Source of the DNA: Candidatus Parcubacteria bacterium
Lineage (GTDB): Bacteria > Patescibacteriota > Minisyncoccia > UBA6257 > HR35
Length of the DNA stretch: 64,000 nt
Reading direction: 5' to 3'
Assembly (NCBI GenBank): GCA_025999335.1
Contig: AP024681.1
Span: 322,565 to 386,564 of the forward strand
The translations under genes were made by a program, and so were the position numbers. The notes under the pieces were generated by a model. The model made no database searches, was not told where the DNA came from, and saw only the letters and a list, made by a program, of their open reading frames with translations. Shown piece by piece: positions 7,315-63,134 of the stretch; position 1 is the stretch's first letter; each line of letters opens with the position of its first letter.

Positions 7315-7342
7315 TTTTATAATATTTCATTATAATTTAATT

Positions 7343-8989: not shown

Positions 8990-9018
8990 ACTAAAATCTG
9001 AGTTATAATTTAAAACAA

Positions 9019-9371: not shown

Positions 9372-9396
9372 TCTTTTTAAATTAACATTAACTATT

Positions 9397-15532: not shown

Positions 15533-16081
15533 TTAATTTAAATTTTCAAAGTTTGTTGTTGATGTAGAAAGTTGTTGTTGATTTTTAAAATTAATTTTTT
15601 CTAAAAATTTTTTTGAAATATATAAGGGAACAATTCCTAAATTTAAATATTTTTTTTGAATATAAACAGGCAGGTATTTAAAATCTCGAATACGTTTACG
15701 ACAATTATTGCTTCCACAGTTACAATTCATTTCCCAATCGTCTTCGTCCATTGTTGTAGAATAATCCCAAGTGATTTCTTCGTTTTTCTTTATCTCTTTT
15801 ATGGCAATTAAAAAAACTTTTTTACCGTTTATTTTTACTCCGGAATTTGGATCGCAAGAATGATTCAAAAAATCATCAATATCGCCTGATGGTCCTATGT
15901 ATAAATTTTCGCCTATTTGCATATAGCGATCTTCGGTTTTATTGTAAGGTGTTGGCAATTCTTCGCTGGTATATAAATCCCCGCGAAATTCAAGAATAAA
16001 TTCATTTTTTTTAAAATCTTTGTTTGCGAAAACGCCTTTACCGTTTTGTGTCTTTCTAACAATCAAATTTTTACTCCCCAT
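15533..16081 (-). CDS. SET-domain protein (putative protein lysine methyltransferase)
   Basis: 182 aa. Carries NHSCDPN, EEITWDY and the post-SET cysteine cluster CNCGSNNCRKRI. Confidence 0.8.
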   Translation of the reverse strand: MGSKNLIVRKTQNGKGVFANKDFKKNEFILEFRGDLYTSEELPTPYNKTEDRYMQIGENLYIGPSGDIDDFLNHSCDPNSGVKINGKKVFLIAIKEIKKNEEITWDYSTTMDEDDWEMNCNCGSNNCRKRIRDFKYLPVYIQKKYLNLGIVPLYISKKFLEKINFKNQQQLSTSTTNFENLN

Positions 16082-20269: not shown

Positions 20270-20609
20270 ACAACAAGAAGGCACTTTAAGCGTCGATGTT
20301 TATTTTAAAGACGACGAGTTGGTAATTATTGCGCCTATTGCCGGAGCTATTATGGAAAACATAGATTTAGTTGTTCAAGGCGAGATTTTAGTTATTAAAG
20401 GTTCGCGTCTGCCTCCCGAACAAATTGATGAAAGTCAATATGAACATAAAGAATGCTTTTGGGGTTCATTTTCAAGAACAATTGCTTTACCTAAAAATTT
20501 AGATTTAAACCAGATAAAGGCTTATTATCATAATGGTATTTTAATGGTTAAGATTCCTAAAAAAGGCGATAGCGAAGTAAAAAGAATTCAAATTCAAGCT
20601 TCTGAATAG
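20238..20609 (+). CDS. Hsp20/alpha-crystallin small heat-shock protein
   Basis: 123 aa with an alpha-crystallin domain pattern (..GSFSRTIALP..I.A.Y.NGIL.V.IPK). It overlaps the upstream gene by 32 nt, and its stop codon shares one base with tRNA-Ile. Confidence 0.85.
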   Translation: MTNDYSNPQIKQQEGTLSVDVYFKDDELVIIAPIAGAIMENIDLVVQGEILVIKGSRLPPEQIDESQYEHKECFWGSFSRTIALPKNLDLNQIKAYYHNGILMVKIPKKGDSEVKRIQIQASE

Positions 20610-20681
20610 CGTCCATAGCTCAGCGGTTAGAGCACCGACCTTATAAGTCGGGGGTCCCTGGTTCAAATCCAGGTGGACGCA
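20609..20681 (+). tRNA. tRNA-Ile (anticodon TAT)
   Basis: Acceptor GCGTCCA/TGGACGC. Anticodon stem CCGAC/GTCGG with loop CTTATAA, so the anticodon is UAU. T-loop GGTTCAAATCC. Confidence 0.85.
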
Positions 20682-20685
20682 CTTA

Positions 20686-37250: not shown

Positions 37251-37973
37251 TTATTTAAAATTACCACAAGCAAAACCTAAAGTGATAAGAGCATCGGTAT
37301 TTTGTAATTTTAGTAATTTTTTGATTTCATCATCATGCAAAGCTCCGGAGATAACACCACCAATATTTTCGTTTGCTAAGCGTAAGCCGAGGCTTTGCGC
37401 ATAAAGTCCGGTTTCAATAAGGATGAATCTACCACCGCGTTCACCGTATTTATTAACAGTTCTTTCAGGAATAGCGACAAAAATAAAAAATACCGCGGGT
37501 TCTCCTTCTAATTCTAAGCCAAAGAATTCTTTAATTTCATTCCATTCAGGGCAATTTGTTACTATTGAGAGAGAATGATTGTCGGCATTATAGTAGACGA
37601 TTTTTTTGTTTAATTTGCTTTTAACATTAAATAAACAAGCAAAAACTTCAATAGGATATTTGCCGCCAGCTGATGGTAATAATCTTTTTGTTGAATTTTG
37701 TTGAGCAAAAGCATAAAACAATGACCCTAATTGTTTTTCTGAGATAGGCACGCTAGAAAATTCTCTAGTACTTTTTCTTTGAGACATTATATAGGCTAGA
37801 CGATCTTTAGGCTTTTTTAAAAATAAATCTTCACTAGGGTAAAAAATTTGGGGTATGGTTTTAAAAGTTCGAGCATCTTCTATGAGATTTTTGATTAATT
37901 TTAAAGATGTTTGCTTGTTTAGTTTAGAATTTTCCCAGAACAACCTAAAAAGATCTGCTTTGTTTTCGTCCAT
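37251..37973 (-). CDS. SagB-type FMN-dependent dehydrogenase (TOMM azoline oxidase, McbC/SagB family)
   Basis: 240 aa with a nitroreductase-fold pattern. Carries RKSTREF, LLPSAGGKYP and NKYGERGGRFILIETG (Lys-Tyr motif). Sits 4 nt downstream of the YcaO gene. Confidence 0.8.
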   Translation of the reverse strand: MDENKADLFRLFWENSKLNKQTSLKLIKNLIEDARTFKTIPQIFYPSEDLFLKKPKDRLAYIMSQRKSTREFSSVPISEKQLGSLFYAFAQQNSTKRLLPSAGGKYPIEVFACLFNVKSKLNKKIVYYNADNHSLSIVTNCPEWNEIKEFFGLELEGEPAVFFIFVAIPERTVNKYGERGGRFILIETGLYAQSLGLRLANENIGGVISGALHDDEIKKLLKLQNTDALITLGFACGNFK

Positions 37974-37977
37974 TGTT

Positions 37978-39234
37978 TTATCCTAAAGGATGAGGCAATT
38001 TATTTGGAAATTCGACTTGATTAACTAAATCAGGATATCGCCATTTTACATCTGCTGTCCGTCCACCAAGAAAAGGAGCTCGTTCATCGCCGTGAAGCAA
38101 AGATAGCTCTGGAGATAAAACTCTTATTACATTTAAACCAGTTTCACGCACTTCGTCAATGGTTATATCACGATAAAATAGTCTGATGTTTTGTTCTTTT
38201 AATTGTTTAATTAAATTTGTTAAAATTTCAATTGTGTTAGTAGCTTTATTTTCTTGGGCTTGTTTTTGATATGAAAATCGTTTTTTTAACAAGGGAGTTT
38301 TGTGCCATAAGTGTGGATAAAGAGTATAGTAAACGGCATGTTTGTCAAAATCAACAATATCTTCAATTTTATTAAGTTTTAAATCTCTATTATAAAGGCT
38401 ATAAAATCCAGCAAAAATTACCCCTTGAATCCATTCAAGATATGCTTTTTCAATGGCTTCTTCATAAGTTGGTCGACAAGCAACGCCCATTGAAATTCGT
38501 TTTTTATTTCTTAGCGGCAAATGACCACAAACAATAACAACAGGATGAGGATTCCATTGTTGAGTTATATCAAAACAGAAAATTTCGCCACCCTTTTTTA
38601 AAACAGGATTTGTATATTTTTCATCAAGCTTGATTTCTCTGCCGCCTAAGGAATTAAGCCAATAAACAGTTAAGGCATCTCTTTCTAAGACTTCTTGAAT
38701 CCCCAACAATAAAGCATTGAACTTATTAAAATGAGCCGCTAACCCAGTTGACGTTGAGGGAAGAAAAGCTTTGTTAGATTTTGTGCCTAACCCAATTAAT
38801 TCTTGCGGGACCCAAAATTTTTCGTTATTATACACCGAATAAACTTCGCCAAAAAATGCTTCTTTAATATCAAATTTTTCCCAAGGAAAATTTTTGTTAT
38901 TATACTGTTTTTCTAAAAAAAGAGAAAATTGATCATGGGTAATTATTTTTTCATTTTTTATTTCTGATAATTTTTTAACTGGAAAATTTATTAAAAATGC
39001 CGAATATCTTTCCATAGCTTCAGCAATAGCACTAATAGTTGCTATTTGTTCATCTTGGTTGATCCCACCACTGGCTGATCTCCATGCTTCAATGGAATTT
39101 TCAGGTACAGAAACATTGGCTATATTTTCAATATCTGCAAAAGTGTTTTCAACTTTTTGAGGCGGAAGAACAATCCCGCAACGAAAACTTGTCGCTTTTT
39201 GTAAAACATATTGATTTAAAGTTTTTTTAAACAT
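37978..39234 (-). CDS. YcaO-domain cyclodehydratase (SagD/McbD-like)
   Basis: 418 aa. Carries the YcaO ATP/Mg motifs AIAEAMERYS and GIQEVLERDA, plus TSTGLAAH and a Pro-rich C-terminus ..FPNKLPHPLG like azoline-forming YcaOs. Confidence 0.85.
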   Translation of the reverse strand: MFKKTLNQYVLQKATSFRCGIVLPPQKVENTFADIENIANVSVPENSIEAWRSASGGINQDEQIATISAIAEAMERYSAFLINFPVKKLSEIKNEKIITHDQFSLFLEKQYNNKNFPWEKFDIKEAFFGEVYSVYNNEKFWVPQELIGLGTKSNKAFLPSTSTGLAAHFNKFNALLLGIQEVLERDALTVYWLNSLGGREIKLDEKYTNPVLKKGGEIFCFDITQQWNPHPVVIVCGHLPLRNKKRISMGVACRPTYEEAIEKAYLEWIQGVIFAGFYSLYNRDLKLNKIEDIVDFDKHAVYYTLYPHLWHKTPLLKKRFSYQKQAQENKATNTIEILTNLIKQLKEQNIRLFYRDITIDEVRETGLNVIRVLSPELSLLHGDERAPFLGGRTADVKWRYPDLVNQVEFPNKLPHPLG

Positions 39235-51313: not shown

Positions 51314-52355
51314 TAGCCAGTTTAAGAATTAAGCTTTTGTCTTCGTTTTTTAATTTTTCAATAATAAAGTCGTAAGTTTTATCTACTTCTAATTTATTTA
51401 GATTTTCGAAAATCAAACCTTTAGCGCCGTTGACTTCAACAACGCCGAAAATATCATTTTTAGATTTAACAACGCCGCTCACTTTATCGCCTTCTTTATA
51501 TTTTTTAAGAATTTGCACCCAAGGATCAATAGTTAAGTTTTTTAAGCTAAAATTTGCTCTATTATTTTTTATTTGAATAAGCTTCGCTTCTATTTCCATA
51601 CCTATTTTAAAATTTTTTTCAAGGTTTGCCAATTGTTCTTCAGGAATTTCTGAAGCATGAATTAATCCGTCCATTGCCGGATTATCGTTAAATCTTACGA
51701 AAAGTCCAAAGTTGCTAATACTAACAATTCTAACTTTCATAATGTCGCCAATAATCATTTTTTTGAAAACTTCTTGATAAAGTTCTTCTTTAGCTGCTTT
51801 TTCTGACAAGATTAACTTGTTTTGTTTTAACTCTGCAGAAACAATGCGACATTTTATTTTTTGGCCTATGAATTTTTTTAAATGTTCAAGAATAGCATTT
51901 TTATCATTTTTTTCATTAATACGTGGATAGTATTCAGGTGACATTTGCGATAAGGGAATAAAGCATGGCATACCTTCAACTTCACCTAACCATCCTCCTC
52001 GATTTGCATCTTTAATTTCAATCTCCAATAAATCGTTTTTTTGGTAGTGAGTTAAAATTTTTTGCCATTTGTCAATGTTAGAAATTTCCTGGAGGATAAC
52101 CTCGTAATTTCCGTAATCATCGCTTAAACCTATGATTTTTACCCCGACTTTATCACCAACTTTCAATTGTTGAGCTAAATTTTTGCATTGCAAATAATAT
52201 ATACCGTATAAGCGTCCTGTGCCATAAGGACTTAAATCAATTATTATCTCATTACGTTTTTTACTCATCACTGTTCCTTGAAGAATAGAATCAATTTCTA
52301 AAGGCTTCGCTAGCTTTAATTTAATATTGTTATTAGCTTGTTTAACTTCAGTCAT
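51303..52355 (-). CDS. rpsA: S1 RNA-binding domain protein (ribosomal protein S1-like, four S1 repeats)
   Basis: 350 aa with repeated S1-fold patterns (G.V....G..V.L.....G..H.S). Overlaps ftsH by 11 nt. Confidence 0.7.
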   Translation of the reverse strand: MTEVKQANNNIKLKLAKPLEIDSILQGTVMSKKRNEIIIDLSPYGTGRLYGIYYLQCKNLAQQLKVGDKVGVKIIGLSDDYGNYEVILQEISNIDKWQKILTHYQKNDLLEIEIKDANRGGWLGEVEGMPCFIPLSQMSPEYYPRINEKNDKNAILEHLKKFIGQKIKCRIVSAELKQNKLILSEKAAKEELYQEVFKKMIIGDIMKVRIVSISNFGLFVRFNDNPAMDGLIHASEIPEEQLANLEKNFKIGMEIEAKLIQIKNNRANFSLKNLTIDPWVQILKKYKEGDKVSGVVKSKNDIFGVVEVNGAKGLIFENLNKLEVDKTYDFIIEKLKNEDKSLILKLANEL

Positions 52356-52573
52356 TGTTTTGTTTTAATAATTTAATTCAAATTTAAATTGAATAATAAA
52401 TAACGATTTTATTATTATATCATAAAATTTAAACAACAAATTTAAATTATAATTAATTTCAAGTTTTATTCTCTAAAAACTTGATATTAATTTTCAATTG
52501 ATATATATTATAATAAAATATTATAAAAAAGCTTTATAATTATATTTTAATTAAATATTTTTAAAGTTCAACT

Positions 52574-53071
52574 ATGGAAATTAAAAGTCATAAAAACTTC
52601 GCGGAAATTAATGTTGGAGCCATTAGTTTTTTTTGTGATCCTTCGGATGATTTTTTGGCCGAAGTTGATAATAAAAATGTGATTTTATTGTCAAATCCGT
52701 CTTTAGATTTAAATTATAACCGCATCTTTAATGCGGCTGGCGAATATAATGTTGATGATGTGTATTTTTGGGGCTTTAATAATAAAAAAAATATTGCTTA
52801 TTTATTAGAATATAAAAAAAATTTTCTTTTTTATTGCAATGGCGGCGTTGCGCAAGAAACAATTAAGCATATTAAGGCGTTTTATAAGAATATAGATGTT
52901 TTACTTTTAGGCAAAGACAATACTGATAAGGAGATTATTGCTGCCTTAAAGCCGAAAATTATTTTTTCTTTTAGGAATATTGAGGTTAATAAATTTACAA
53001 AAGAAAAAATATCTAAAGTTAAATTAAATTTTAAAAAGGTCGAAAATGTTTTATATATTTTTTCATCATGA
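52574..53071 (+). CDS. hypothetical protein
   Basis: 165-aa ORF with ATG start and an ATGA overlap with the next gene. No family recognised. Confidence 0.55.
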   Translation: MEIKSHKNFAEINVGAISFFCDPSDDFLAEVDNKNVILLSNPSLDLNYNRIFNAAGEYNVDDVYFWGFNNKKNIAYLLEYKKNFLFYCNGGVAQETIKHIKAFYKNIDVLLLGKDNTDKEIIAALKPKIIFSFRNIEVNKFTKEKISKVKLNFKKVENVLYIFSS

Positions 53072-53268
53072 AAAAACTTAATCCTCATTTTTTAGCCCTT
53101 ATGGTTGTCGTAGGATTATATTTATTATGGTGGTTAAGTGGTGGTAATTTTTTAGGAGTTGTTCAACGTCCTTCGCCATTAACAGTAGGCACAGCTTTTA
53201 TTGCTAATAATCTTAAATTAGGCGCGATTACTGTCTTCGAATCTTTTTATAAAGTAATTAATAAATAA
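53068..53268 (+). CDS. small membrane protein
   Basis: 66 aa with one hydrophobic helix. Translationally coupled through an ATGA overlap. Confidence 0.45.
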   Translation: MKKLNPHFLALMVVVGLYLLWWLSGGNFLGVVQRPSPLTVGTAFIANNLKLGAITVFESFYKVINK

Positions 53269-53280
53269 TTTATTATCTTA

Positions 53281-55596
53281 ATGAAAGAAAAAATTTTCTC
53301 TCAAGATCTTACCGAAGAATTAAGGCAAGCTTATTTAGATTATGCGATGAGCGTGATTGTTTCTCGAGCTTTGCCTGATGCTCGTGATGGTTTAAAGCCT
53401 GTGCAACGGCGTATTTTGTATACAATGAAAGAATTAAGTCTTTGGCCCAATGATAAATTTACCAAATGTGCTAATATCGTTGGTAATACCATAGCTCGTT
53501 ATCACCCTCATGGCGATCAGGCTGTTTACGATGCTTTAGTAAGGATGGCTCAAGGTTTCTCTTTGCGCTATCCTTTAATTATTGGTCAGGGAAATTTTGG
53601 TTCGATTGATGGCGATCCGCCAGCTGCTTATCGTTATACTGAAGCTAAATTGTCGTCTTTTTCTGTAGAAATGTTGTCTGACATTGATAAAGAAACAGTT
53701 GACTTTCGACCTAATTATGACAATACTAAAGAGGAACCTGTAGTACTGCCATCACGATTTCCTAATTTAATTGTTAATGGTTCTTTAGGCATAGCCGTTG
53801 GTATGGCAACAAGCATTCCGCCTCATAATTTAACAGAAGTAATGAAGGCGGTAAAATTTTTATTGCAAAACAATCTTAAAGCAGACATTGACGAACTTTT
53901 AACAATTATTCAAGGACCAGATTTTCCTACCGGTGGTTTAATTTACGGCGTAGGCGGTTTAAAGAATTCTTATTTAGAGGGCAAGGGTAGTATTATTTTA
54001 AGAGGCGAGGTTATAACTGAACAAGCTAAAAAAACAAGGTTAGTAATTATCTCTTTGCCATGGCAAGTGAACAAATCCGAACTTGTTAAAGAAATAGCTA
54101 ATTTAGCTTTAGAGAAAGTTATACCGGAAATAAAAGATGTTCGTGACGAATCAAATAAAGATGGCGTAAGAATTGTTATTGACATTAAAGATGGCGATCT
54201 TGATAAAATTAAAGCTAATTTATATCGTTTGACTTCTTTGCAAAAAACTTTTTATTTAAATTTAATTGCTCTTGATCAAGGCTTGCAACCAAAAATTTTT
54301 AATTTAAAAGAATTGTTGTTGGCGTGGATTTATCATCGTCAGGATGTCATTCGTCGACGCACAAAGTTTGACTTAGACAAAAATAAAGAGCGCGTTCATT
54401 TGCTTGAAGGCTTTGATAAAGCTTTAGAAGATTTAGATAAAGTGATTAATATTATTAAAAAATCTAAAGATAAAAACGACGCTCTTATTAATTTGAAGAA
54501 GAAATTTTCTTTAAGCGATAAGCAAGCCGATGCTATTTTAGAAATGCCTTTACGTACTTTAACTCAGCTTGAGAGGCATAAAATTTTACAAGAATTAAAA
54601 GAACGTCTTTCGCTTATAAAAGAACTGGAAACTATTTTAAAAAACCCTAAAAAAATCGATGAATTAATTATTAAAGAAGCCGATGAGATTATAAAAAAAT
54701 ATCCTTCGCCACGCTTAACCAAGATTGTTCATTCCCAAGATCTTGAAATTAGCAAAGAGCAAAAAATACCCTTAGAAAAAGTATGGTTAATCATTGATAA
54801 TAAACATTTTGTTTCTTTAGCGCCAATTGATAAATTAAGCATTGATAAATTATTTAAAAAAGAACCAATTAAGTTCTTGTCAATTGTTAATACAACTGAT
54901 AAGCTATTAGCCATTAGCAAGAAAGGCAGAGTATATACTCTTAATCTTAGCAATTTCTATTTTAGCGGCAAATATCTTGAATCACAAATTAATTTAGACA
55001 AAGACGATGCTATTGTTTCTGTTTTGCCAAATCCTGATCAGGCTAAATATTTATTATTGATTACCCATAATGGTTTTGGTAAAAAGGTTGCTTTAAAGGA
55101 TATTCTTAGTAATAGACGTAACGGCGTACAAGCCATTAAGATGAAAAATGATTTTTTGGTTGATGGTGTTTTTGTTCAAGATTCAAATATTGTTGGTTTG
55201 ATTAATAACAAAGGCAATATTTTATTGCTAAAATGTACCTTACCGGTTCAAGGTAAAAGCGCTAAGGGATTAAAAATGATGCGTGATGGCGGTATAGAAA
55301 AAGTTTTTCTTTATCAAAGCGATATCTTATTATTAATATTTGAAAAAGGCTTCTATAAAAAGATAAACTTAAAGGAAATTAAGATTCAAAATCGAGGCAC
55401 TAAAGGTGTTAAGTTATTTGATAATAAATATGGCAGATTATTGTTAGCGCAGACATTAAGTGATAATAAGGAAATTATTATTTTTGGCGATCAACTAAAG
55501 AGAATTTCTCTTAATAGTTTAAGTCTTAGCAAGCGCATTAGTTCACCTAAACAGCTTGATAAGATTGAATTGATTAATTCTTGCTTGCTTTTATAG
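53281..55596 (+). CDS. gyrA: DNA gyrase subunit A
   Basis: 771 aa. Carries [33 protein letters not shown], the catalytic-Tyr region AYRYTEAKL, and a C-terminal beta-pinwheel region. Confidence 0.93.
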
Positions 55597-55626
55597 AGAA
55601 TAAGAATTTTTTATTTGACTATATCA

Positions 55627-56148
55627 ATGTTTTTAAAACCTCAAAATATTTTAAACGAGTTAAGAAATAATAAAATTATCACGCCTTCAATGAAAGGAGC
55701 TGATTTTGGTTGTGGTTCTGGTTATTTTACAGCTTTATTAGCTAATGAAGTTGGACAAAACGGTTTAATTTATGCCATTGATATTCAAGAAGATGTTCTT
55801 AAGGAAGCGCAAGAATTTCTTAAGAATTTAAATATTAATAATGTTCGTTTTATTTTAGCTGATCTTGAAGAAAATTCTCAGTTAGAGTCGGAAACTTTAG
55901 ATTTTGTTTTTATTTCGCAATTATTATTTCAAGTTGAAAATGTTGAGAGAATTTTTTTTGAAGCAAAAAGAGTTTTGAAAAAAAATGGTTATCTAATTAT
56001 TGTTGAGCCTTTAAGAGATAATTATTTATTTCGAGAATATAAAGTTTTATCTGAAAATAATATCGAATCTTATCTTAATGAAAATGGATTTAAAATAATA
56101 TTAATGAAAAAGTTTAGCGGTTATTTTTTATCAGTTAGCCAAAAATGA
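55627..56148 (+). CDS. class I SAM-dependent methyltransferase
   Basis: Motif I is GADFGCGSGYF, followed by acidic-loop and post-I motifs. The ATG at 55627 is preferred to the TTG at 55615. Confidence 0.8.
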   Translation: MFLKPQNILNELRNNKIITPSMKGADFGCGSGYFTALLANEVGQNGLIYAIDIQEDVLKEAQEFLKNLNINNVRFILADLEENSQLESETLDFVFISQLLFQVENVERIFFEAKRVLKKNGYLIIVEPLRDNYLFREYKVLSENNIESYLNENGFKIILMKKFSGYFLSVSQK

Positions 56149-57305
56149 ATCTCAATTCTTTAGCTGATAAAATTAGAGATTGGGATAGCATCACTAAGTT
56201 AAAAATTCTCTTTTTCTTGATTGTTTTAGCGCTTATAGGTTTTTTTGTTATTAAAAATGTTTTTTTTGGTCAACAGAAAAGCAATTTACCTTGTTTTCGA
56301 GCTACAATTCGTATTTGGAGTCCTTTTAATAATAATGATTTGCTGGCAGTTTTAAATCCATTACACTCATATTGCATATCGTTTGTTTTTGAAAATAAAA
56401 CTTTAGACGATATAGATATGGATTTTATTGATAGTTTATTGAATAATAAATATCCTCATATTGTTTACTTGGATGATAATTTATTAAATAAATATCAAGA
56501 ACATTTAGTATCTGAACCAATTCTTTTTAATGTAGATACTTTAATTTCTTATTACAATAAAGATTATCTAAATTTTTTAGGTTTGCCAAAACTAAAAACT
56601 ATTGATGACATTCCGACTTTTGTTTCCCAAGCAAAAGCATCGTTAAAAAAAGATGTTTATCCTGTTGGCTTAGGTAGCGTAGAAATTCGCAATTATAAAG
56701 AAATAATTTTTTCTATTTTTAGTGGTTATATGCGAATATCTAATAACTTTAAACCGCAGGAAACCTTTAAAAAAACAATGGATTTTTATACCTCTTTTTC
56801 TGATCCAACATCGCCAAATTTCAGTTATCCTTTAGATAGTGGTAGCGATATTCAAAATTTTGCTGCTGAAAAATTAGTAGTTTATTTCGGTTTTTATCAA
56901 GATAAAAATGAGATTAATAAATTTAATCCCCGGCTTAATTATGAAATATATTATTTCCCAAATGTTTTACCGCCTAAAATAATTTTATCTTCTAAAAGAT
57001 ATTATTGGGCTATTGTTAAAAGAGATAACATCAATCTTTCTAAAGATGTTCTTAATTTCTTTATAAAAAAAAATCCTGATTCGTTAGATTCTTTTATCAA
57101 AAAATATGATTTGGTGTCGGAATGGGAACGCCAACCATCTCAAGATAAACAAATAGTTTTGGAATCTTTTAAAAATTATGGCACAAACATTGATTATAAA
57201 ACTAAATTATCGATATTAAGATATATTAGTGATTATTTAAATAATATCGATAATCCTGTTGAAGCAAATAAAATATTAAATTTTGTTAATTCAATTAGAT
57301 TTTAA
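56145..57305 (+). CDS. hypothetical membrane-anchored extracytoplasmic protein
   Basis: 386 aa with one N-terminal TM helix and a large soluble domain. Its size and pattern could fit a solute-binding-protein-like fold. It directly precedes the pilin-like array. Confidence 0.55.
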   Translation: MNLNSLADKIRDWDSITKLKILFFLIVLALIGFFVIKNVFFGQQKSNLPCFRATIRIWSPFNNNDLLAVLNPLHSYCISFVFENKTLDDIDMDFIDSLLNNKYPHIVYLDDNLLNKYQEHLVSEPILFNVDTLISYYNKDYLNFLGLPKLKTIDDIPTFVSQAKASLKKDVYPVGLGSVEIRNYKEIIFSIFSGYMRISNNFKPQETFKKTMDFYTSFSDPTSPNFSYPLDSGSDIQNFAAEKLVVYFGFYQDKNEINKFNPRLNYEIYYFPNVLPPKIILSSKRYYWAIVKRDNINLSKDVLNFFIKKNPDSLDSFIKKYDLVSEWERQPSQDKQIVLESFKNYGTNIDYKTKLSILRYISDYLNNIDNPVEANKILNFVNSIRF

Positions 57306-57311
57306 ATATTT

Positions 57312-57746
57312 ATGCAGCAAAATTATTTACAACAATTTTTATTTATAATAATGATTTTAATTATATTTTCGCCTATATTTATTAAAGCAGCAAGAGTTGA
57401 TTTAGCAAGCATTGTTGTTTGTTCAGCAACCCCTTGTACTTGGGGAGATTTTATAGCTACTTTGCAAAATGTTATAAAAGCAATTGTCGAAATATCTTTT
57501 TATTTAACTGTTTTATTTAGCGTTATTGGTTCTTTTATGATTATGTTTCACGGACCAAGGCCTGATTTTTATCAGAAAGGTAAAAGTTTTATTCAAATTT
57601 CGATTACTGGCTATATTATTTTATTATTTTCAGCATTGATTTTTGATACTATATTAGGCATTTTACAACCTCAATTTGTTAGTCAATATTTTTTTAAAAT
57701 TATAGAGATAACAAAAATTTTAAGTCTTAATAATTATTTTAATTAA
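57312..57746 (+). CDS. VirB2/TrbC-topology pilin-like small membrane protein 1
   Basis: 144 aa. It has a signal-peptide-like N-terminus and a Cys pair (CSATPC). Helix 1, a basic loop (HGPRPDFYQKGKSF) and helix 2 follow. Confidence 0.6.
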   Translation: MQQNYLQQFLFIIMILIIFSPIFIKAARVDLASIVVCSATPCTWGDFIATLQNVIKAIVEISFYLTVLFSVIGSFMIMFHGPRPDFYQKGKSFIQISITGYIILLFSALIFDTILGILQPQFVSQYFFKIIEITKILSLNNYFN

Positions 57747-57748
57747 TT

Positions 57749-58162
57749 ATGAAATATTTTTATTTTTTATTAATAAGTATGCTATTTGTTTTTAATTTTA
57801 CGCCTAATTCATTTATGATTCAAGCTCAAAGTGCTGCTTCTTATTCGCCGGTGATCTATTATAATTCTTTAAAATCAGCTATTTTAGGTTCTTTAAGATG
57901 CGGACAAGTTCCGACGCCAACATCAGCTTGGACGCAGTTAAAACAATGTTTACTTGATGCTGTGTCGTCTTTAAGAGGTATATCCTTGCTGTTTTTAGCT
58001 TTAGCAATTATTGGATCAGGTATTTACTTATTAACAACGCCATTGTTTGGTCTTAAAAATATAGCTTTGGCTTATAAAATTTTAACTTGGTCAATTATTG
58101 GCTTTATTATTATTTTAACCGCTGATATTATTGTTGGACAGTTAGACCTTCTTTTAAGATAA
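57749..58162 (+). CDS. VirB2/TrbC-topology pilin-like small membrane protein 2
   Basis: 137 aa with a signal peptide (..MIQAQS), a Cys pair (RCGQ...KQC) and a two-helix hairpin. Confidence 0.6.
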   Translation: MKYFYFLLISMLFVFNFTPNSFMIQAQSAASYSPVIYYNSLKSAILGSLRCGQVPTPTSAWTQLKQCLLDAVSSLRGISLLFLALAIIGSGIYLLTTPLFGLKNIALAYKILTWSIIGFIIILTADIIVGQLDLLLR

Positions 58163-58165
58163 AAA

Positions 58166-58594
58166 ATGTTAGTTCGTAAAAAATTTTTATTTATTTATCT
58201 AATATTTATACTTATTATTCCAATATATAATTTTTATGTACTTTCAGGAAGCGATGAAACTGCAAAAGTAGAAATTAGTTTTGTTACTTACACAGCTGCT
58301 GTTTGTCCGCCTTCTATTTTGGGTATACCTAGTTCGCGAGCTTCTTGCACTTTTCCTTCAATTGTTGATATTATTGCTACTACTTCTAATTTTATTATTT
58401 CTGAGTTAGCTCCTTTAACTTTAGTTATTTTAATTATAATAGGCGGATTTTTATATATTTTAATGGTATTTCAACCATCTTTTCTTGAATTAGGGCATAA
58501 GTATATTCAATGGGGAATTTATGGCTATGTTATTTTACTTTTGATTTTTTCAATCTTAGTATTTATTCAAACCACTTTTACACCATCGCCATAA
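58166..58594 (+). CDS. VirB2/TrbC-topology pilin-like small membrane protein 3
   Basis: 142 aa with a signal anchor, a Cys pair (VCPPS...SCTF) and a two-helix hairpin. Confidence 0.6.
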   Translation: MLVRKKFLFIYLIFILIIPIYNFYVLSGSDETAKVEISFVTYTAAVCPPSILGIPSSRASCTFPSIVDIIATTSNFIISELAPLTLVILIIIGGFLYILMVFQPSFLELGHKYIQWGIYGYVILLLIFSILVFIQTTFTPSP

Positions 58595-58694
58595 AAATTT
58601 TTTTATAAAATGTGTTATAATTAAAATGGAAGTATAAAGCAAATAACACTGGTCGTTATTAAATAATTAATTTTTAAAAACTTCTCTTTTAAAA

Positions 58695-59126
58695 ATGACT
58701 TATCTTAGTCGTCAAAATAAAGCAAAAAAAATTATTTTCGTGTTATTTTTCTTAGGATTATTATCTTTAGCGACTTTCAAATTTGTTTATGCTCAGACTG
58801 GTGGTACTGGTGGCACAGGGGGTACGGCTACTGGTCCTTTTGATATAGTGCCGTCCGGTGTGCCTACCACTATATGTGGCGAGAGGGACAATCTTTTAGT
58901 ATGCGGTGGTAAATGGGCAACAACTATTTTAAGATATTTAATTTTCATTGCCGTAGCTTTTTCTGTAATAATGATTGCTTATGCTGGCGTAGAATATATA
59001 CTATTTGGTGGTGGAGACGGAGCTAAAAATGCTAAAAATAGAATTATATACGCTATTGTTGGATTAGTTATTGCTTTTATAGCTTTTGTGGCCGTTAGAA
59101 TGATAGTCAATACTCTTACTTCATAA
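58695..59126 (+). CDS. VirB2/TrbC-topology pilin-like small membrane protein 4
   Basis: 143 aa. It has a signal peptide (..FVYAQT), a TGG repeat and a Cys pair (ICGERDNLLVCG). Helix 1, the loop GGGDGAKNAKNR and helix 2 follow. Confidence 0.65.
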   Translation: MTYLSRQNKAKKIIFVLFFLGLLSLATFKFVYAQTGGTGGTGGTATGPFDIVPSGVPTTICGERDNLLVCGGKWATTILRYLIFIAVAFSVIMIAYAGVEYILFGGGDGAKNAKNRIIYAIVGLVIAFIAFVAVRMIVNTLTS

Positions 59127-59256
59127 AATCCATAATTATTCATAAAAGATTTAGAGTATATAAGTTATTTAAAATTAAAAATTTATACCTTGATCTGAAG
59201 AAATTATGGTGAATTTTTAGTTATTTAAGGTTAAAGTTATATAAATACGTTAGTTT

Positions 59257-60342
59257 ATGAATTTTCTTAATAAAAAAAAATTCCATAAAATTTTACTCAC
59301 CAGCGTTTTAATATTTATGGTCTTATTTGTTGATTTGTTTAATGTTTTTTCTTTTGCAGGTTTGATTAATATATCTAGGGCAACTAGTCATGGAAGCAGT
59401 GGTAGCGGTGGTGTAGGAGTTGGTGGATCATTGCCAGACGTTATTCAAGTATTGCCTACGCCGCCTCTTTTAAATTGTCCTGCTTATCTTACAGACTCAA
59501 TGTGGGTTAATATTTTTGGAGAGAATAGATTTGGAGGTAGAGAAATTAATATATCGAATAGCGGTCAGTTTATGGTTTGTTTTCTTTTTATTGCAACTCA
59601 AGTTTTATCTTCTTTGGCTTGGATAGCCATTGTTTTTTCGGTTTTAGCTATAACTTATTATGGTATTTTGTATATTGTTAAACCGAGCACTTCTTCTAAT
59701 ACTACTAAAAACATTACTTGGGCTGTTTGGGGCTTAATTGTTTCTTTATCAGCATTTACTTTAGTACAGTTAATTCGTTGGAGCTTTTTTTCCTTTAATC
59801 CTAATTTAGACAATATAGCTAATTTATCTTTTTATTGGTTTATTAATAAGTTTCAATTTATAAATATTGCACAAGCTTATGTTGAAAGTGGTGTAGTTCA
59901 AAATAATAATTTATCCTTTGGTTATTTAGGAGAAAAATTAATCTCGGGTTTAGGTTTGCCTATGTTAGTGTCATTGTTAGCATTAACAAGTTTACCTGAA
60001 TTATTAGGGTTGCCTGACTGGATAGGCGAGCTTCATAATCTTCGTTTGAGTTTTTGTCCTGATTTGCCAAATGTTTTGTCTCCGGGTTCTATAGTTCCTC
60101 CTGATACTTGGACAGAATGCGCTTTTTCTTTTGTTTATATGCTTATATATTTATTATCTTGGTTGGCTTTGGTTTTATCAGTAATTTTTATAAGTTGGTT
60201 TGGCATTTTGTATATTATTCAACCATCAGAAGCTCAAAAAACGCATAGTCGCTTAAAATATGCTTTTATAGGTTTGATTGTCTCATTATCAGCTATTATG
60301 ATTATTAATTTAATATCAATGTTGTTTGTAGATTTATTCTAA
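59257..60342 (+). CDS. pilin-like protein with two tandem two-helix modules
   Basis: 361 aa with a signal anchor and a Gly/Ser-rich stretch. Two copies of the module are present (..LAWIAIVFSVLAITYYGILYIVKPS.. and ..LSWLALVLSVIFISWFGILYIIQPS..). Confidence 0.6.
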   Translation: MNFLNKKKFHKILLTSVLIFMVLFVDLFNVFSFAGLINISRATSHGSSGSGGVGVGGSLPDVIQVLPTPPLLNCPAYLTDSMWVNIFGENRFGGREINISNSGQFMVCFLFIATQVLSSLAWIAIVFSVLAITYYGILYIVKPSTSSNTTKNITWAVWGLIVSLSAFTLVQLIRWSFFSFNPNLDNIANLSFYWFINKFQFINIAQAYVESGVVQNNNLSFGYLGEKLISGLGLPMLVSLLALTSLPELLGLPDWIGELHNLRLSFCPDLPNVLSPGSIVPPDTWTECAFSFVYMLIYLLSWLALVLSVIFISWFGILYIIQPSEAQKTHSRLKYAFIGLIVSLSAIMIINLISMLFVDLF

Positions 60343-60360
60343 AGATTATTTTCTAATAAG

Positions 60361-60618
60361 ATGCCTCCTGGCCCAATTGATAACATAATTCATCCTACTT
60401 TAACTTTAGCGTTATCAAATACCATTAATTGGTTCTTTCAGTTTACTGTGTATATAGCTATTATTGTTTTAATTTATCTAGGTATTTTATATATTACTAA
60501 CAAAGAAGAAGGCATTAAAAAAACTCATAGTTGGTTGGGCTATTTAGCTATAGGTATTCTTATTGTTTTTTTATCGCGAATTTTAATCCAAGCAGTATAT
60601 TTGTTGTTAGTGGGATAA
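60361..60618 (+). CDS. pilin-like two-helix miniprotein (no signal peptide)
   Basis: 85 aa. It shares the GILYI...KKTHS.L.Y..IG..IV core with the modules of the preceding gene. Confidence 0.5.
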   Translation: MPPGPIDNIIHPTLTLALSNTINWFFQFTVYIAIIVLIYLGILYITNKEEGIKKTHSWLGYLAIGILIVFLSRILIQAVYLLLVG

Positions 60619-60648
60619 ATAGATTATAATAATATTAAAAATTTAAAA

Positions 60649-60732
60649 GCGCGGGTGGCGGAATTGGTAGACGCACAGCCTTGAGGTGGCTGCGAGATTA
60701 TTCTCGTGGAGGTTCGAGTCCTCTCCCGCGCA
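60649..60732 (+). tRNA. tRNA-Leu (anticodon GAG), long variable arm
   Basis: Acceptor GCGCGGG/CCCGCGC, D region TGGCGGAATTGGTAGACGC, anticodon loop TTGAGGT, T-loop GGTTCGAGTCC. Confidence 0.85.
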
Positions 60733-62110
60733 CTTTTTTAATTAGAGCCATCATCTTTTTTTCAATTAGTTTTAACTTGGATTTATTAATAGCTTCTAAA
60801 TATGCTTTGATATTAGGAGAAGTGTTTGATTGGCGTATTAAAAACCAACCATAAGGGAAGTAAATTTTGATTCCATCGATTATTTTAAATTTTTTAAATA
60901 ATTTTTTAGCAAAAGAAGTTATAGTTTTAACGAATTGATTTTTTTTATTGTCATCGTAATACCAGGTTATTTCTTTGTAGGGATATGTTTTTAAGTCATT
61001 GATGAGCATAGACAAAGGTTTTTTTTCTTTAATAAGTATTTCGCCAATTTTTAAAGGCACTAACAAAGCGTCGTCAAAGATAAAGTATTGAGGCATAACA
61101 ATATGACTTGATTGTTCAACTCCTAAAATAGCTTTGTATTTTTTGCATGCGGGAATAACAGAATTATGCCCAACAGGAACTTCTTTAATATTAATATTTT
61201 TTTGAATTTTTAAATTATTCTCTAAAGCCATTGAAACAGCAACCGTTTTAACAATAATTAATTTTTGTTGTGTTTGTTGATGTTCGTTTATTAAAAATTT
61301 AGCTAATAGACTGCCTATTTCATTGCCATTTAAATATCTACCTTGGTCATCGATAATAATAGCTCTATCGCCATCACCGTCAAAAGCAACGCCAAAATGC
61401 GCTTTTGTTTGTTGTACTATTTTTTTTAATTTTGTTGTTGCTTCCAAGGTTGGCTCGCTAGCTCTTCGTTTGCCAAAAATTTTATAATTACAATGAATTT
61501 TTTTAACCCAGAAGCCCAATTTTTTAAAAACTAAAGGGGCTATAATTGAAGTAGCTCCGTCAGCGCAATCAACAACTATCTTTAGGTTATTATTTTTTAA
61601 CAAAGGAAAATGTTTTTTAAAGAAATTTATATATTTTTGACTGAAGTTAACTTTAACAATACTTTGTTTTTGTTTAGGCGCTATTAATTGTTTATTCTTT
61701 AATTTTTTAATGGCTTGTTTAATGTTTTTAATGTCTTTTGACTTAAAAGGTTCGCCATCGCCATAATGTATTTTTAATCCATTCCAATGAGGTTCTAAGT
61801 GAGAAGCGGTAATAAAAATAATTTTATTGCTTTTTAATTGCCAACCCGTAAAAACACATAAGCCAATAGAGCTGATGTCTGTATAAAAAACTTTTGCTTT
61901 TTTAGCGCTCAAACCTTTTATTAAATATTTAGCTAACTGGCGACTGTGACGGCGATTATCGCTGCCAACCGTTATTCTTTCATTTTGTTTAGCAATAGCG
62001 TAGCCAAGTTGAAAAAAAGTATCTTCGTTAAAGTCTTTACCATACACTCCTCTAATATCATAACGGCGAAAAATGTTGTTATTAATTTGCACAGATTTTT
62101 GGTTATTCAT
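60698..62110 (-). CDS. phosphomannomutase/phosphoglucomutase family protein
   Basis: 470 aa. Carries the phosphoserine loop ITASHLEPHWNGLK and the Mg site FDGDGDR. The last ~12 codons are antisense to tRNA-Leu. Confidence 0.85.
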   Translation of the reverse strand: MNNQKSVQINNNIFRRYDIRGVYGKDFNEDTFFQLGYAIAKQNERITVGSDNRRHSRQLAKYLIKGLSAKKAKVFYTDISSIGLCVFTGWQLKSNKIIFITASHLEPHWNGLKIHYGDGEPFKSKDIKNIKQAIKKLKNKQLIAPKQKQSIVKVNFSQKYINFFKKHFPLLKNNNLKIVVDCADGATSIIAPLVFKKLGFWVKKIHCNYKIFGKRRASEPTLEATTKLKKIVQQTKAHFGVAFDGDGDRAIIIDDQGRYLNGNEIGSLLAKFLINEHQQTQQKLIIVKTVAVSMALENNLKIQKNINIKEVPVGHNSVIPACKKYKAILGVEQSSHIVMPQYFIFDDALLVPLKIGEILIKEKKPLSMLINDLKTYPYKEITWYYDDNKKNQFVKTITSFAKKLFKKFKIIDGIKIYFPYGWFLIRQSNTSPNIKAYLEAINKSKLKLIEKKMMALIKKVRGRGLEPPRE

Positions 62111-62147: not shown

Positions 62148-63134
62148 ATGACAAGAAAAAATTTTTTTCCTCAGAAAGTGAAAGCTTTTAATGTCCAAAG
62201 AAAGAGAAATGTTTTGCAAATCATTGAAGCGATGAAACAAACAGCTTTTCAAGGAAGAAGATTAGCTCAAGTTGTTGATGTTTGGTCAAAGATGGTGTCT
62301 GATAAAAAGGTGACTATTTTTTTAGGCTACGCTGGTTCTTTAAGCACAGCTGGGCAATGGCGTGGTATATGTTGGTTGATTGAAAATGGATTTGTTGATG
62401 TTATCGTTGCTACTGGCGCTAATCTGTCTGAAGATATCGTTGAAGCTATGGGTAAGAGTTACTATCAAATTAATGGCAATTTTGATGATGAATGGTTGCT
62501 AAAAAATAACTGCAATAGGTATTACGATATTTACGGTAAAGAAAAAGATTATATGCAGATGACAGAATTAATTGCTGATTTTATTCTGACTTTGGAAAAT
62601 AATCATCCTTTTTTTTGTCCGGCAATAATCGATAGTCCTTATGGCGACGCTGGCTTAATTGCTAAAAGCAAAGGTTTTAATTTGATTATTGATTCTATGA
62701 AAGATTATATTGAATTTATGAGTTTAGCCAAGGAGATAAAAGAAACAGGAGTTATCTATTTAGGCGGCGGCGTACCTAAAGATTTTATTCAACTTTTAGC
62801 TGTCACCGCTAATTTACTTTATGACAACAGAGAAGTTCCTAATAAAAAAGTGAAAATTAAAAGAATAATTGACAAAGAGATTAAAGAAAGTTATTACCCT
62901 CATAAATACGCTATTCAAATTACAACTGACGCGCCTCAGTGGGGAGGCCTGTCTGGTTGTACTTTTGAAGAAGCGATAAGTTGGGGTAAAATTGATAGTA
63001 GAGGAAATTTTGTTCAATGTTATTGTGATGTTACCATTGCTTTGCCGATTATCTTGCATGCATTATCTTTAAAAGTAAATAAAAAAAGAAAACGTACTTT
63101 GTTTAATTTTTATGGGCCTGTAGCTCAGTGGTAG
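62148..63134 (+). CDS. deoxyhypusine synthase-like (DHS family) protein
   Basis: 328 aa. Carries ..GYAGSLSTAGQ..I..LIENGFVDVIVATGANL.ED, P.IIDS..GD and YLGGGVPKDF, matching the DHS family pattern. The last 21 nt overlap tRNA-Ala. Confidence 0.75.
   Translation: MTRKNFFPQKVKAFNVQRKRNVLQIIEAMKQTAFQGRRLAQVVDVWSKMVSDKKVTIFLGYAGSLSTAGQWRGICWLIENGFVDVIVATGANLSEDIVEAMGKSYYQINGNFDDEWLLKNNCNRYYDIYGKEKDYMQMTELIADFILTLENNHPFFCPAIIDSPYGDAGLIAKSKGFNLIIDSMKDYIEFMSLAKEIKETGVIYLGGGVPKDFIQLLAVTANLLYDNREVPNKKVKIKRIIDKEIKESYYPHKYAIQITTDAPQWGGLSGCTFEEAISWGKIDSRGNFVQCYCDVTIALPIILHALSLKVNKKRKRTLFNFYGPVAQW

Follow-up and report, generated by a model that had tools for sequence, protein, structure and literature searches.

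What do a row of six small genes on the chromosome of Candidatus Parcubacteria bacterium KatS3mg097 (contig of 680,436 bp) encode, and do their products act together as one device or in turn as alternative pilins? The genes lie in a 64-kb stretch of DNA (the window) that carries dnaA at position 2398, which makes the array origin-proximal. Tandem VirB2-like arrays are, as a class, already published (Wang et al., 2023, PMC10633639; Quinonero-Coronel et al., 2025, PMC12102498). In Patescibacteria 441 of them have been reported (Quinonero-Coronel et al., 2025), and Southlakia epibionticum ML1, the one genetically tractable member of the group (PMC11665869; PMC12857230), has an essential six-gene array, SEML1_0014-0019 (Wang et al., 2023), made up of six PF18895 genes inside an essential type IV secretion system (T4SS) locus (PMC10633639; PMC12857230). 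This T4SS and its pilin array are essential to epibiotic growth, in a role that has been called completely unknown (PMC11665869; PMC12857230). The first-pass annotation of the window had missed both the earlier publication of this array type and the membership of an upstream 386-aa gene in the same cassette.

Between 57312 and 60618 the list of open reading frames (ORFs) gives exactly six, consecutive and on the + strand, as that annotation had stated. ORF1 (KatS3mg097_376, 57312-57746, 144 aa), ORF2 (57749-58162, 137 aa) and ORF3 (KatS3mg097_378, 58166-58594, 142 aa) constitute modules 1, 2 and 3, each with a signal peptide, a Cys pair (Cys37/Cys42, Cys51/Cys67 and Cys47/Cys61, respectively) and a hairpin. 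Module 4 is ORF4 (KatS3mg097_379, 58695-59126, 143 aa), the most canonical pilin of the array, in which the signal peptide (VYA-QT) is followed by a Gly/Thr-rich exposed segment, Cys61/Cys70 and the hairpin; its AlphaFold2 (AF2) model places helices at residues 6-34, 67-104 and 108-142. ORF5 (59257-60342, 361 aa) matches PF18895 in two stretches and fuses module 5 (aa 1-181, Cys74/Cys108) to module 6 (aa 182-361, Cys267/Cys288), with an internal, relic signal-like segment at aa 227-250. Module 7 is ORF6 (KatS3mg097_381, 60361-60618), an 85-aa hairpin with neither signal peptide nor Cys.

A Kyte-Doolittle scan detects a hydrophobic N-terminal signal or anchor in ORFs 1-5 and, in every module, two C-terminal hydrophobic helices joined by a net-basic loop of 10-13 residues (for example, GGGDGAKNAKNR and QPSEAQKTHSRLK). 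Since ORF5 contains two such hairpins, the six ORFs hold seven modules, the number originally proposed. In all seven modules a net-basic loop connects the two arms of a membrane helical hairpin, and six of them present a Cys pair in an exposed N-terminal segment. The VirB2/TrbC membrane topology of leader, two helices and basic loop was therefore rightly recognized, and all the Cys motifs quoted are present, among them CSATPC in ORF1 (C37/C42) and ICGERDNLLVCG in ORF4 (C61/C70). Of the plan ascribed to all six ORFs, the hairpin holds throughout; the signal or anchor does not extend to ORF6. A promoter and terminator scan of 52300-61000 gave 60 against 49.6±7.1 in shuffled sequence, which is not above expectation, and operon structure is therefore read only from gene spacing and overlaps. 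The paralogues are 14-35% identical to one another.

All six ORFs match PF18895 (T4SS_pilin); relative to the curated cut-off of 26.6 bits, three score higher (ORF2, 27.0; ORF4, 29.2; ORF5, 35.0) and three lower (ORF1, 21.8, E 2e-4; ORF6, 20.9; ORF3, 12.7, E 0.14). The pilin-family matches looked for thus exist for PF18895 but not for PF04956 (TrbC), which in the Pfam scan touches ORF6 alone, below its cut-off (23.1 against 27.9 bits), and none of ORFs 1-5; precomputed PF04956 matches are present on some distant relatives of the array pilins. Searches by word index with single proteins found few relatives (two for ORF4, ten for the product of the upstream gene), and profile and pattern searches were therefore used. 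A profile (A3) whose sole sources were ORF4 and remote database relatives, and which left the other five ORFs outside the model, matches all six; these five score between E 9e-7 and 7e-19 (ORF1, 3.5e-9; ORF3, 1.9e-9; ORF6, 8e-9), and there is no further match among all window ORFs of at least 50 aa, that is, no extra pilin-like ORF elsewhere in the 64 kb. The NCBIfam Mbov_0395 pilin-like model (NF045849) is matched by ORF4 (E 2e-4) and ORF5 (E 2e-3), at 21 bits against a cut-off of 40. Weak profile matches to DctQ and V-ATPase subunit f were also drawn by the hydrophobic hairpins.

The features of PF18895 (leader, two hydrophobic helices and short charged loop) are found in the array, with ORF6 lacking the leader. 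A Patescibacterial VirB2 array has been defined as at least two PF04956 or PF18895 genes, in tandem or with one non-pilin gene between them, each with an i-E below 0.001 and more than 50% profile coverage (PMC12102498). By this definition the locus is one: ORFs 1, 2, 4, 5, and 6 pass, and ORF3 lies between passing genes. ORF4 also matches the pilins of L014 and L015 at E ~1e-10, and the likeness to pilin-like proteins of CPR genomes that had been noted extends to relatives that lie immediately beside VirB4/PrgI/TrbL clusters in other Patescibacteria (L014 and L050). Judged by sequence, the six genes are very probably real members of the T4SS-pilin-like family PF18895, three of them falling short of its curated cut-off. 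Direct homology to bona fide VirB2 is unsupported: hhalign of the A3 or A1 alignment against genuine VirB2 gives a probability of ~1% with a VirB2 alignment that is narrow (four sequences, from Ti, Ri, Sinorhizobium and Acetobacter plasmids), and the only contact with PF04956 is the sub-cut-off match of ORF6. The family profile matched no pilin among PDB sequences, and structural comparison of the ORF4 model with PDB entries returned generic helical hairpins only (best E 0.75), the fold being too simple to inform.

Where, then, is the secretion machinery? Pfam scans, and phmmer with the L014 and L050 proteins, agree with the first-pass annotation in finding no VirB4, VirB6 or VirD4 in the 64-kb window, nor any PrgI or TrsD; window ORFs of unassigned function, re-scanned at E≤1 for T4SS families, gave nothing. 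The T2SSE/PilB ATPase at 7157-8989 is, as had been claimed, the sole secretion ATPase found there by Pfam. A Patescibacterial T4SS locus has VirB4 within ~20 genes, plus PrgI/VirB3, a TrsD-like gene and VirB6; no such locus lies within the window or in the 10 kb of upstream sequence of the sister strain (GCA_041640215.1, L003), where no T4SS core gene occurs, and none occurs within 7-10 kb of any examined cassette that, like this one, is headed by a solute-binding-fold gene. In L014 and L050 the pilin arrays are divergent from VirB4, TraC-like, PrgI and TrbL genes. VirB4 is present in 2,417 of 3,035 Patescibacterial assemblies (~80%), and the parts of their T4SS are often dispersed. To our knowledge, no pilus built of the PF18895 family has been seen in any organism. 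KatS3mg097, GCA_041640215 and GCA_006214125 are absent from the text supplementary tables of PMC12102498, as far as these tables were available.

The first gene of the cassette is KatS3mg097_375 (56145-57305, + strand, 386 aa), whose product has an N-terminal transmembrane (TM) helix at aa 21-39. This protein has no solute-binding protein (SBP) match in Pfam at E≤1; PF01547/PF13416 are carried by its 32-43% identical relatives (P0046, P0048, P0051-53) and by longer relatives in L013 and L023, and BLASTP links it (E 8e-7) to an SBP_bac_1/8 protein that L013 encodes at the syntenic position. Its AF2 model (pLDDT 81.8, pTM 0.76; the other four models are of low confidence, 49-57) has the two-lobed fold of periplasmic binding proteins. 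At E≤1e-3 Foldseek finds 968 matches in the PDB, led by ABC sugar SBPs and MBP (E 1e-13 to 1e-11, TM 0.55-0.65). The product is thus a membrane-anchored protein with a predicted SBP_bac_1-like fold. The subfamily is narrow: a search of 1.84 billion proteins yielded 25 representatives at E≤1e-10. In 26 of the 26 related loci that could be checked the pilin array lies directly 3' of this gene, so that the modules are always preceded by a membrane-anchored solute-binding-fold gene; stop and start codons overlap by 4 nt in at least 12 of the loci. No ABC permease or ATPase adjoins the cassette.

Within the clade carrying this short SBP-like gene, to which the one-to-one correspondence of modules is confined, the seven modules are collinear orthologues. 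Reciprocal best hits of module 1 in L016, L018, L020 and L022 are 46-52% identical, those of module 2 43-47% and those of module 3 42-48%; orthologues score 55-109 bits, against 21-56 bits for the second-best hit in the same genome. The modules keep their order one-to-one in genomes whose GyrA is only 66% identical, and more than 20 loci share the Cys pairs, the loop motif and the gene order. Adjacent modules are fused in combinations that differ by lineage: module 2 is joined to module 1 in L016, L018, L020 and L022, the ORF5 region is two genes in L019 (229 and 124 aa), and P0008 is module 6 alone. A terminal gene of 76-87 aa (the module 7 type) is kept in all complete arrays of the clade. 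Positional orthology was sought and not found with the Saccharimonadia-type arrays (L014, L015) or with L013. The set of seven is fixed and ancient, and its order does not change from one lineage to the next. Collinear orthology and lineage-specific fusion favor a set of several subunits with fixed membership over copies that are interchangeable or phase-variable and so strengthen the first of the two readings, multi-subunit and phase-variable, that had been offered for the array.

Between close strains the same cassette is the fastest-evolving, most strain-variable stretch of its neighborhood. Against GCA_041640215.1, 652 differences (145 per kb) fall inside 56145-60648. The divergence island (56219-60614, without strand) has sharp edges and spans the SBP-like gene and all pilin genes, and its flanks are 99-100% identical, with 5.4 differences per kb on the left and zero substitutions on the right. 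Identity returns to 100% from 60637 on, and a tRNA-Leu(GAG) gene (60649-60733, + strand; ARAGORN, Rfam) is the right boundary of both cassette and island. The differences cluster in the exposed parts of modules 4 and 5: ORF4 is 66.7% identical (dN/dS 1.0 in aa 34-74) and ORF5 73% (dN/dS 0.78 in aa 36-105). Modules 1-3 are 89-95% conserved, and the hairpins are under purifying selection (dN/dS 0.14-0.43). No invertible-element repeats, long direct or inverted repeats, silent copies or switchable promoters were found at the array, where repeats amount to short AT-rich tandem ones and one 9-bp x3 repeat coding for a Gly/Thr stretch; A9 runs occur in the start region of ORF5 (59272-59280) and at 57065. 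Phase variation is unsupported, given this absence and the individual conservation of each paralogue.

Taken together, the cassette probably encodes seven diverged, VirB2-like PF18895 modules that form a fixed set with an SBP-fold partner and are drawn by a T4SS into a hetero-oligomeric surface fiber or conduit. The module proteins would be exported by Sec and lose their signal peptides, then sit in the membrane N-out/C-out with the basic loop in the cytoplasm, like VirB2/TraA pilins. The motor that would draw them from the membrane into the fiber or conduit may be the Patescibacterial Gram-positive-type T4SS (VirB4, VirB6, PrgI, TrsD), encoded elsewhere in the genome. Adjacent modules, because they are fused in some lineages, would contact each other 1:1; modules 4-5 would form the exposed, host-facing surface; and the binding-fold protein may act with the fiber, either as its adhesin or receptor or by capturing ligands that are taken up from the host cell. 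A bolder and distinctly more speculative proposal is that the SBP-fold protein and the seven modules are one co-evolving, strain-swappable surface device, a T4SS-type fiber coupled to ligand capture, whose specificity for host or ligand would lie in the binding protein and the hypervariable modules 4-5, and that the long-sought function of the essential Patescibacterial T4SS and pilins might be host-specific import of host-cell molecules rather than export.

The same parts could instead belong to a T4SS-independent membrane complex, an uptake or receptor device of fourteen helices and a binding protein for which "pilin" would denote a shared hairpin fold only. This is unlikely, although in the examined loci of the clade the cassette always stands apart from T4SS core genes and is strictly linked to an ABC-type binding fold with no permease or ATPase adjoining, and homology to true VirB2 is not demonstrable. 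PF18895 relatives do sit beside VirB4, PrgI and TrbL in L014, L050 and S. epibionticum, and VirB4 occurs in ~80% of assemblies with T4SS parts that are often dispersed; signal peptides, exposed disulfide segments and hypervariability also point to a surface-exposed role.

Less probable still is the use of the modules as interchangeable major pilins, one or few at a time, for antigenic or phase variation or host-range switching, a use that has been proposed for the multiple virB2 genes of Anaplasma and Bartonella. The high divergence of the paralogues, the strain hypervariability with dN/dS near 1 in exposed segments, and the suggestion that paralogue diversity could aid adaptation to host strains (PMC12102498) would suit it. 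Against it, every module can be paired, in unchanged order, with an orthologue of its own despite 66% GyrA identity, fusions join neighbors in varying combinations, strains differ little in modules 1-3, and the tightly packed, single-strand genes lack inverted repeats, switchable promoters and silent cassettes. That the ORFs are spurious, or ordinary small inner-membrane proteins of unrelated function made alike by AT-rich, hydrophobic composition, is very improbable and already contradicted by the conservation data: half of the ORFs fall under the Pfam cut-off and hydrophobic hairpins do attract weak matches, but the independent profile is specific to the six among the window ORFs, the Cys pairs, loop motif and gene order persist across loci, and the hairpins are under purifying selection.

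The paralogues behave like seven different subunits that make up a fixed set, and their Rosetta-stone fusions suggest which subunits touch. In one clade the strict coupling to an SBP-fold protein offers a concrete way to approach the uptake or conduit proposal. Between otherwise identical strains the cassette is also a hotspot of recombination and diversification, as expected of a structure that meets the host or its phages, which makes it a candidate host-range determinant and a candidate strain marker in metagenomes.

The closest known systems are the published Patescibacterial VirB2 arrays, which share PF18895 (with or without PF04956), tandem same-strand genes, signal peptides, two-helix hairpins, a chromosomal, origin-proximal location and low paralogue identity (~25% in PMC12102498, 14-35% in the window). 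However, the arrays of S. epibionticum, L014 and L050 abut VirB4, TrsD-like, PrgI and VirB6 genes, whereas the window contains no T4SS core gene and its array is headed by a solute-binding-fold gene, unmentioned in PMC12102498 and PMC10633639. It also differs in its seven collinear, individually conserved modules and its strain-level divergence island; these two traits and the SBP coupling are absent from the literature searched. The upstream protein resembles MalE/UgpB-type SBPs (SBP_bac_1/SBP_bac_8) in fold and in a conserved "D-x-L-x-x-YYNKD" stretch, but is shortened to ~380 aa, too diverged for Pfam, TM-anchored, without a nearby ABC permease or ATPase, and always coupled to a pilin array. 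The Mbov_0395 family (NF045849) of Mycoplasma ICEs likewise has a pilin-like hairpin and belongs to a conjugation system of the wall-less or monoderm kind, though as a single gene on a mobile element and not as a chromosomal seven-module cassette.

VirB2/TrbC/TraA pilins (PF04956; T-pilus, RP4, F-pilus) are also small, with a cleavable leader, two hydrophobic helices and a short basic loop, implying the same N-out/C-out topology. In solved conjugative pili, whose lumen is bordered by the loop, the termini point outward, which fits the variation in the N-terminal segment of the modules. By contrast, the window array shows no significant similarity to real VirB2 in sequence or profile, its modules typically carry a disulfide pair in the N-terminal segment, its host is monoderm, and it comprises seven distinct subunits instead of one major pilin. 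The tandem virB2 paralogues of Anaplasma phagocytophilum and Bartonella are similar as rows of diverged pilin genes with strain variation in host-associated bacteria, and are regarded as alternative forms of a single subunit. Each window module, however, has a conserved orthologue and a position of its own, and fusions occur among them, which argues for distinct roles inside one assembly.

The six pilin-like genes lie in tandem on the + strand: ORF1 (57312-57746, 144 aa, module 1), ORF2 (57749-58162, 137 aa, module 2), ORF3 (58166-58594, 142 aa, module 3), ORF4 (58695-59126, 143 aa, module 4), ORF5 (59257-60342, 361 aa, modules 5 and 6) and ORF6 (60361-60618, 85 aa, module 7). Together with a binding-protein gene directly upstream they encode KatS3mg097_375 to _381 on the 680,436 bp contig, and form the cassette considered here. 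In a hydropathy scan, ORF1-ORF5 begin with a hydrophobic signal or anchor, followed by an exposed segment that in modules 1-4 holds exactly one Cys pair (C37/C42, C51/C67, C47/C61 and C61/C70), and then by two hydrophobic helices with a net-basic loop of 10-13 residues between them. ORF5 contains two hairpin units, each with its own Cys pair (C74/C108 and C267/C288), so that six ORFs yield seven modules; ORF6 has neither leader nor Cys. Aligned with one another, the seven modules all have an invariant Gly where helix 2 begins and are 14-35% identical to ORF4, whose AlphaFold2 model (pLDDT 72.7) shows the leader as a helix and the exposed stretch as disordered, followed by a long helical hairpin (67-104/108-142). 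The arrangement described in the first-pass annotation, six tandem ORFs with seven two-helix modules and Cys pairs, is borne out, the ORFs lying exactly where that annotation placed them. The hydrophobic stretch in the ORF5 linker (aa 227-250) corresponds to the signal peptide of a separate module-6 gene in a related locus (L019 771-1834, P0008); if it still enters the membrane, the second hairpin would have the opposite topology.

All six ORFs match Pfam PF18895 (T4SS_pilin), with ORF2 (27.0 bits), ORF4 (29.2 bits) and ORF5 (35.0 bits, in two stretches) above the curated cut-off of 26.6 bits, and ORF1 (21.8 bits), ORF6 (20.9 bits) and ORF3 (12.7 bits) below it. ORF6 also scores 23.1 bits against PF04956 (TrbC/VirB2), under that model's 27.9 cut-off, and NCBIfam returned weak matches only, to a Mycoplasma ICE pilin-like family. 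As an independent check of the three weak PF18895 members, an HMM (A3) was built from ORF4 and 23 distant database relatives; its targets were every ORF of 50 aa or longer, both in the window and in the fetched loci. Within the window, this model matched the six ORFs (E-values of 3.5e-9 for ORF1, 9e-7 for ORF2, 1.9e-9 for ORF3, 7e-19 for ORF5 and 8e-9 for ORF6) and no other ORF of that length. The earlier assignment to a pilin family proves essentially right. A Foldseek search of the ORF4 hairpin model against the PDB gave no informative match, the hairpin being too simple a fold; the family profile found no solved pilin in the PDB, and hhalign against genuine VirB2 proteins (Ti, Ri, Sinorhizobium and Acetobacter plasmids) gave a probability of about 1%. 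The label "VirB2-like" is accordingly based on topology, a weak overlap of profiles and the gene neighborhood in other genomes, and not on demonstrable homology.

The upstream gene (56145-57305, +) encodes a 386-aa protein with one N-terminal TM helix; on its 5' side the gene overlaps the methyltransferase stop codon, and on its 3' side it stops 6 nt short of ORF1. The protein has no Pfam match. The gene at the same position in the related locus L013 encodes an SBP_bac_1/SBP_bac_8 protein (BLASTP to the window protein, E 8e-7), PF01547/PF13416 is present in part of the relatives that are 32-43% identical, and the predicted AF2 structure (pLDDT 81.8) matches ABC sugar-type binding proteins and MBP (E 1e-13). 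Through an alignment of these binding proteins, loci were fetched from species genomes and metagenomes, and in 26/26 with downstream sequence (some of them near-duplicates) a pilin array lies directly 3' of the binding-protein gene, with a stop/start overlap of 4 nt in at least 12. The coupling of array and binding-fold gene is strict, and extends to full-length SBP_bac_8 genes of other lineages that are 22-27% identical, including L023 and L026, two loci that have 11-12 pilin genes, with type IV pilus minor pilins and a nucleotidyltransferase in front. Within 7-10 kb, T4SS core genes were undetectable in all of these loci. The upstream gene is part of the same unit as the array. Its short subfamily (about 380 aa) is narrow: a set of 1.84 billion proteins yielded 25 representatives at E<=1e-10. 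No mention of the association was found in the literature searched.

Across the clade (window 53281-57305, L013, L016, L018, L020, L022) the gene order is M50 protease, FtsH, S1 protein, small ORF, GyrA, SAM-methyltransferase, binding-fold gene and pilin array; given the overlap between the methyltransferase and binding-protein genes, cassette and gyrA may share a transcript. Several pilin genes of L023 (13007-15500, 17795-18355) and L026 (9093-11585, 13869-14597) carry a Cys-rich extension (6-13 Cys) C-terminal to the hairpin, which is absent from the window's clade.

The arrays of the window, L016, L018, L020, L022 and L019 were compared module by module. Modules 1, 2, 3, 4, 6 and 7 are reciprocal-best-hit orthologues in the same order (31-52% identity, 44-109 bits, against 21-56 bits for the second-best match in the same genome), and module 5, the fastest-evolving, is placed by position only. 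The order is fixed and the fusions vary: modules 1 and 2, two genes in the window, are fused in L016, L018, L020 and L022, with module 3 also joined in L022, and modules 5 and 6 are fused in the window and L016 and separate in L018, L020 and L019. Another eight complete arrays from metagenomes likewise come to seven modules, usually laid out as [1+2][3][4][5+6][7], and throughout the clade each module has one Cys pair, except the last, which has no Cys. From the sequence comparison, this pattern points to an operon for a multi-subunit assembly, built from ancient paralogues that are each individually retained; fused modules likely mark neighbors. It also argues against recent duplication for antigenic variation. 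Of the two possibilities raised in the first-pass annotation, the collinear, individually conserved modules and their differing fusions support the multi-subunit one, and the phase-variable one is unsupported, the paralogues being individually retained and switch elements absent from the locus. The 64 kb window has just two A9 runs, both of them within the cassette, at 59272-59280 (codons 6-8, KKK, of ORF5) and 57065-57073 (binding-protein gene); both could slip, and phase variation is otherwise unsuggested.

A sister strain (GCA_041640215.1; loci L003 and L010) is syntenic with the window. Its GyrA, methyltransferase, phosphoglucomutase and HPF proteins are 100% identical, and along the flanking DNA, taken 300 nt at a time, identity is 97-100%, in most cases at least 99%. 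By contrast, 56219-60614 contains 652 differences (145 per kb, against 5.4 per kb in the left flank and zero substitutions in the right). This island has its left edge 74 nt inside the binding-protein gene and its right edge 5 nt before the ORF6 stop, just ahead of the tRNA-Leu at 60649. Protein identity is 94.6% for the binding protein, 95.4% for ORF1, 90.6% for ORF2, 88.7% for ORF3, 66.7% for ORF4, 73.3% for ORF5 and 83.5% for ORF6. Synonymous divergence is 0.08-0.50 inside the island and 0-0.05 in the flanks, meaning that the island consists of old alleles joined by recombination or kept by selection, and not only of faster amino-acid change. The exposed segments are hypervariable (dN/dS 1.0 for ORF4 aa 34-74 and 0.78 for ORF5 aa 36-105) and the helices are under purifying selection (hairpins 0.14-0.43). 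Other read sets carry further alleles (63-78% identity). The cassette evolves faster than its neighbors at longer range too: against L020, FtsH is 77% and GyrA 66% identical, the binding protein 38% and the modules 29-49%. In the right flank, the deoxyhypusine-synthase-like gene (62148-63134) encodes 328 aa here against 360 aa in the sister strain; the window lacks 96 nt near 62610, a clean in-frame deletion and the only difference in 3 kb.

Distant relatives of ORF4 directly adjoin T4SS core genes in two Patescibacterial loci: in L014 six PF18895 genes are divergent from genes for TrbL_3 (838 aa), PrgI, a TraC-like protein and VirB4, and in L050 PF18895 genes lie beside core genes in the same way. 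Pfam scans of the window (every ORF of 90 aa or more upstream of 51.3 kb, plus the 165-aa ORF 52574-53071; unknowns repeated at E<=1) detected no T4SS core gene, and with the L014 and L050 proteins (VirB4, TraC-like, PrgI, TrbL) as queries, phmmer found nothing at E<=1 in the six-frame ORFs; the initial observation that VirB4, VirB6 and VirD4 homologues are missing from the window holds. The genes for S1, GyrA, the methyltransferase, phosphoglucomutase, deoxyhypusine synthase and HPF owe their identification solely to the sister-strain annotation. In that strain, the 10 kb upstream of the window encode SecDF, GltX, ComEC, RecA and ComM and no T4SS core gene; downstream lie DprA and an LTD-domain protein. 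In the literature, VirB4 occurs in 80% of assemblies, and roughly 40% of the assemblies with both have their pilins at a distance from virB4.

We weigh a T4SS encoded elsewhere. The modules would be exported by Sec, their leader cleaved, and inserted N-out/C-out, the basic loop facing the cytoplasm by the positive-inside rule; the T4SS would then extract them into a hetero-oligomeric surface fiber or conduit, on which modules 4-5 and the binding protein may form the host-facing, specificity-determining surface. We consider such a T4SS-dependent fiber reasonably probable. The main rival, in which the binding protein and fourteen helices form a T4SS-independent complex, seems unlikely. A repertoire of interchangeable pilins is improbable, as the fixed, collinear, orthologous modules and the absence of switch elements argue against a pool of variants, and it would be very surprising if the locus were nothing special.

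The window is origin-proximal chromosome (dnaA at 2398, dnaN at 3928, housekeeping genes, eight tRNAs). Just downstream of the PilB/T2SSE gene lies a class A bacterial RNase P RNA (9017-9377, 143.9 bits). A 182-aa SET-domain protein (15533-16081, -), similar to protein lysine methyltransferases, is encoded in this bacterial genome of about 0.68 Mb. The tRNA-Ile at 20609-20682 has the anticodon UAU (tat) instead of the usual CAU/lysidine route; an Rfam "Plastid-ycf2" match on its opposite strand is spurious. A 2,410-aa surface protein (29647-36879) combines CarboxypepD_reg repeats, fn3, a weak LTD match and two C-terminal PG_binding_1 domains, within a stretch of raised GC (0.37-0.39 vs about 0.29 elsewhere). 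At 37251-39234 (-), genes for a YcaO cyclodehydratase (418 aa) and a nitroreductase-family protein (240 aa) are neighbors, and the next three ORFs (39362-41747) have no family match; the region may be a thiazole/oxazole-type RiPP cluster, unusual for so small a genome.

Arrays of this class have been published before, so that the finding is not new as a kind of feature. VirB2-like genes (PF04956/PF18895) were reported in 1,948 Patescibacterial assemblies, with 441 arrays of 2-11 genes and about 25% identity within arrays (Quinonero-Coronel et al., 2025, PMC12102498). This array is set apart by its binding-protein coupling, its conserved seven-module architecture with Rosetta-stone fusions, its separation from T4SS core genes and the sharply bounded island of divergence between strains, which bear directly on an open question, the role of the essential Patescibacterial T4SS/pilin system. 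In Southlakia epibionticum the pilin genes within the T4SS locus are essential (Wang et al., 2023, PMC10633639), and a 2025 review describes its six pilins as conserved in structure and divergent in sequence. The layout of L014 and of L015, a further distant-relative locus, matches that of S. epibionticum: pilins, then Hsp20, then phosphoribosyltransferase.
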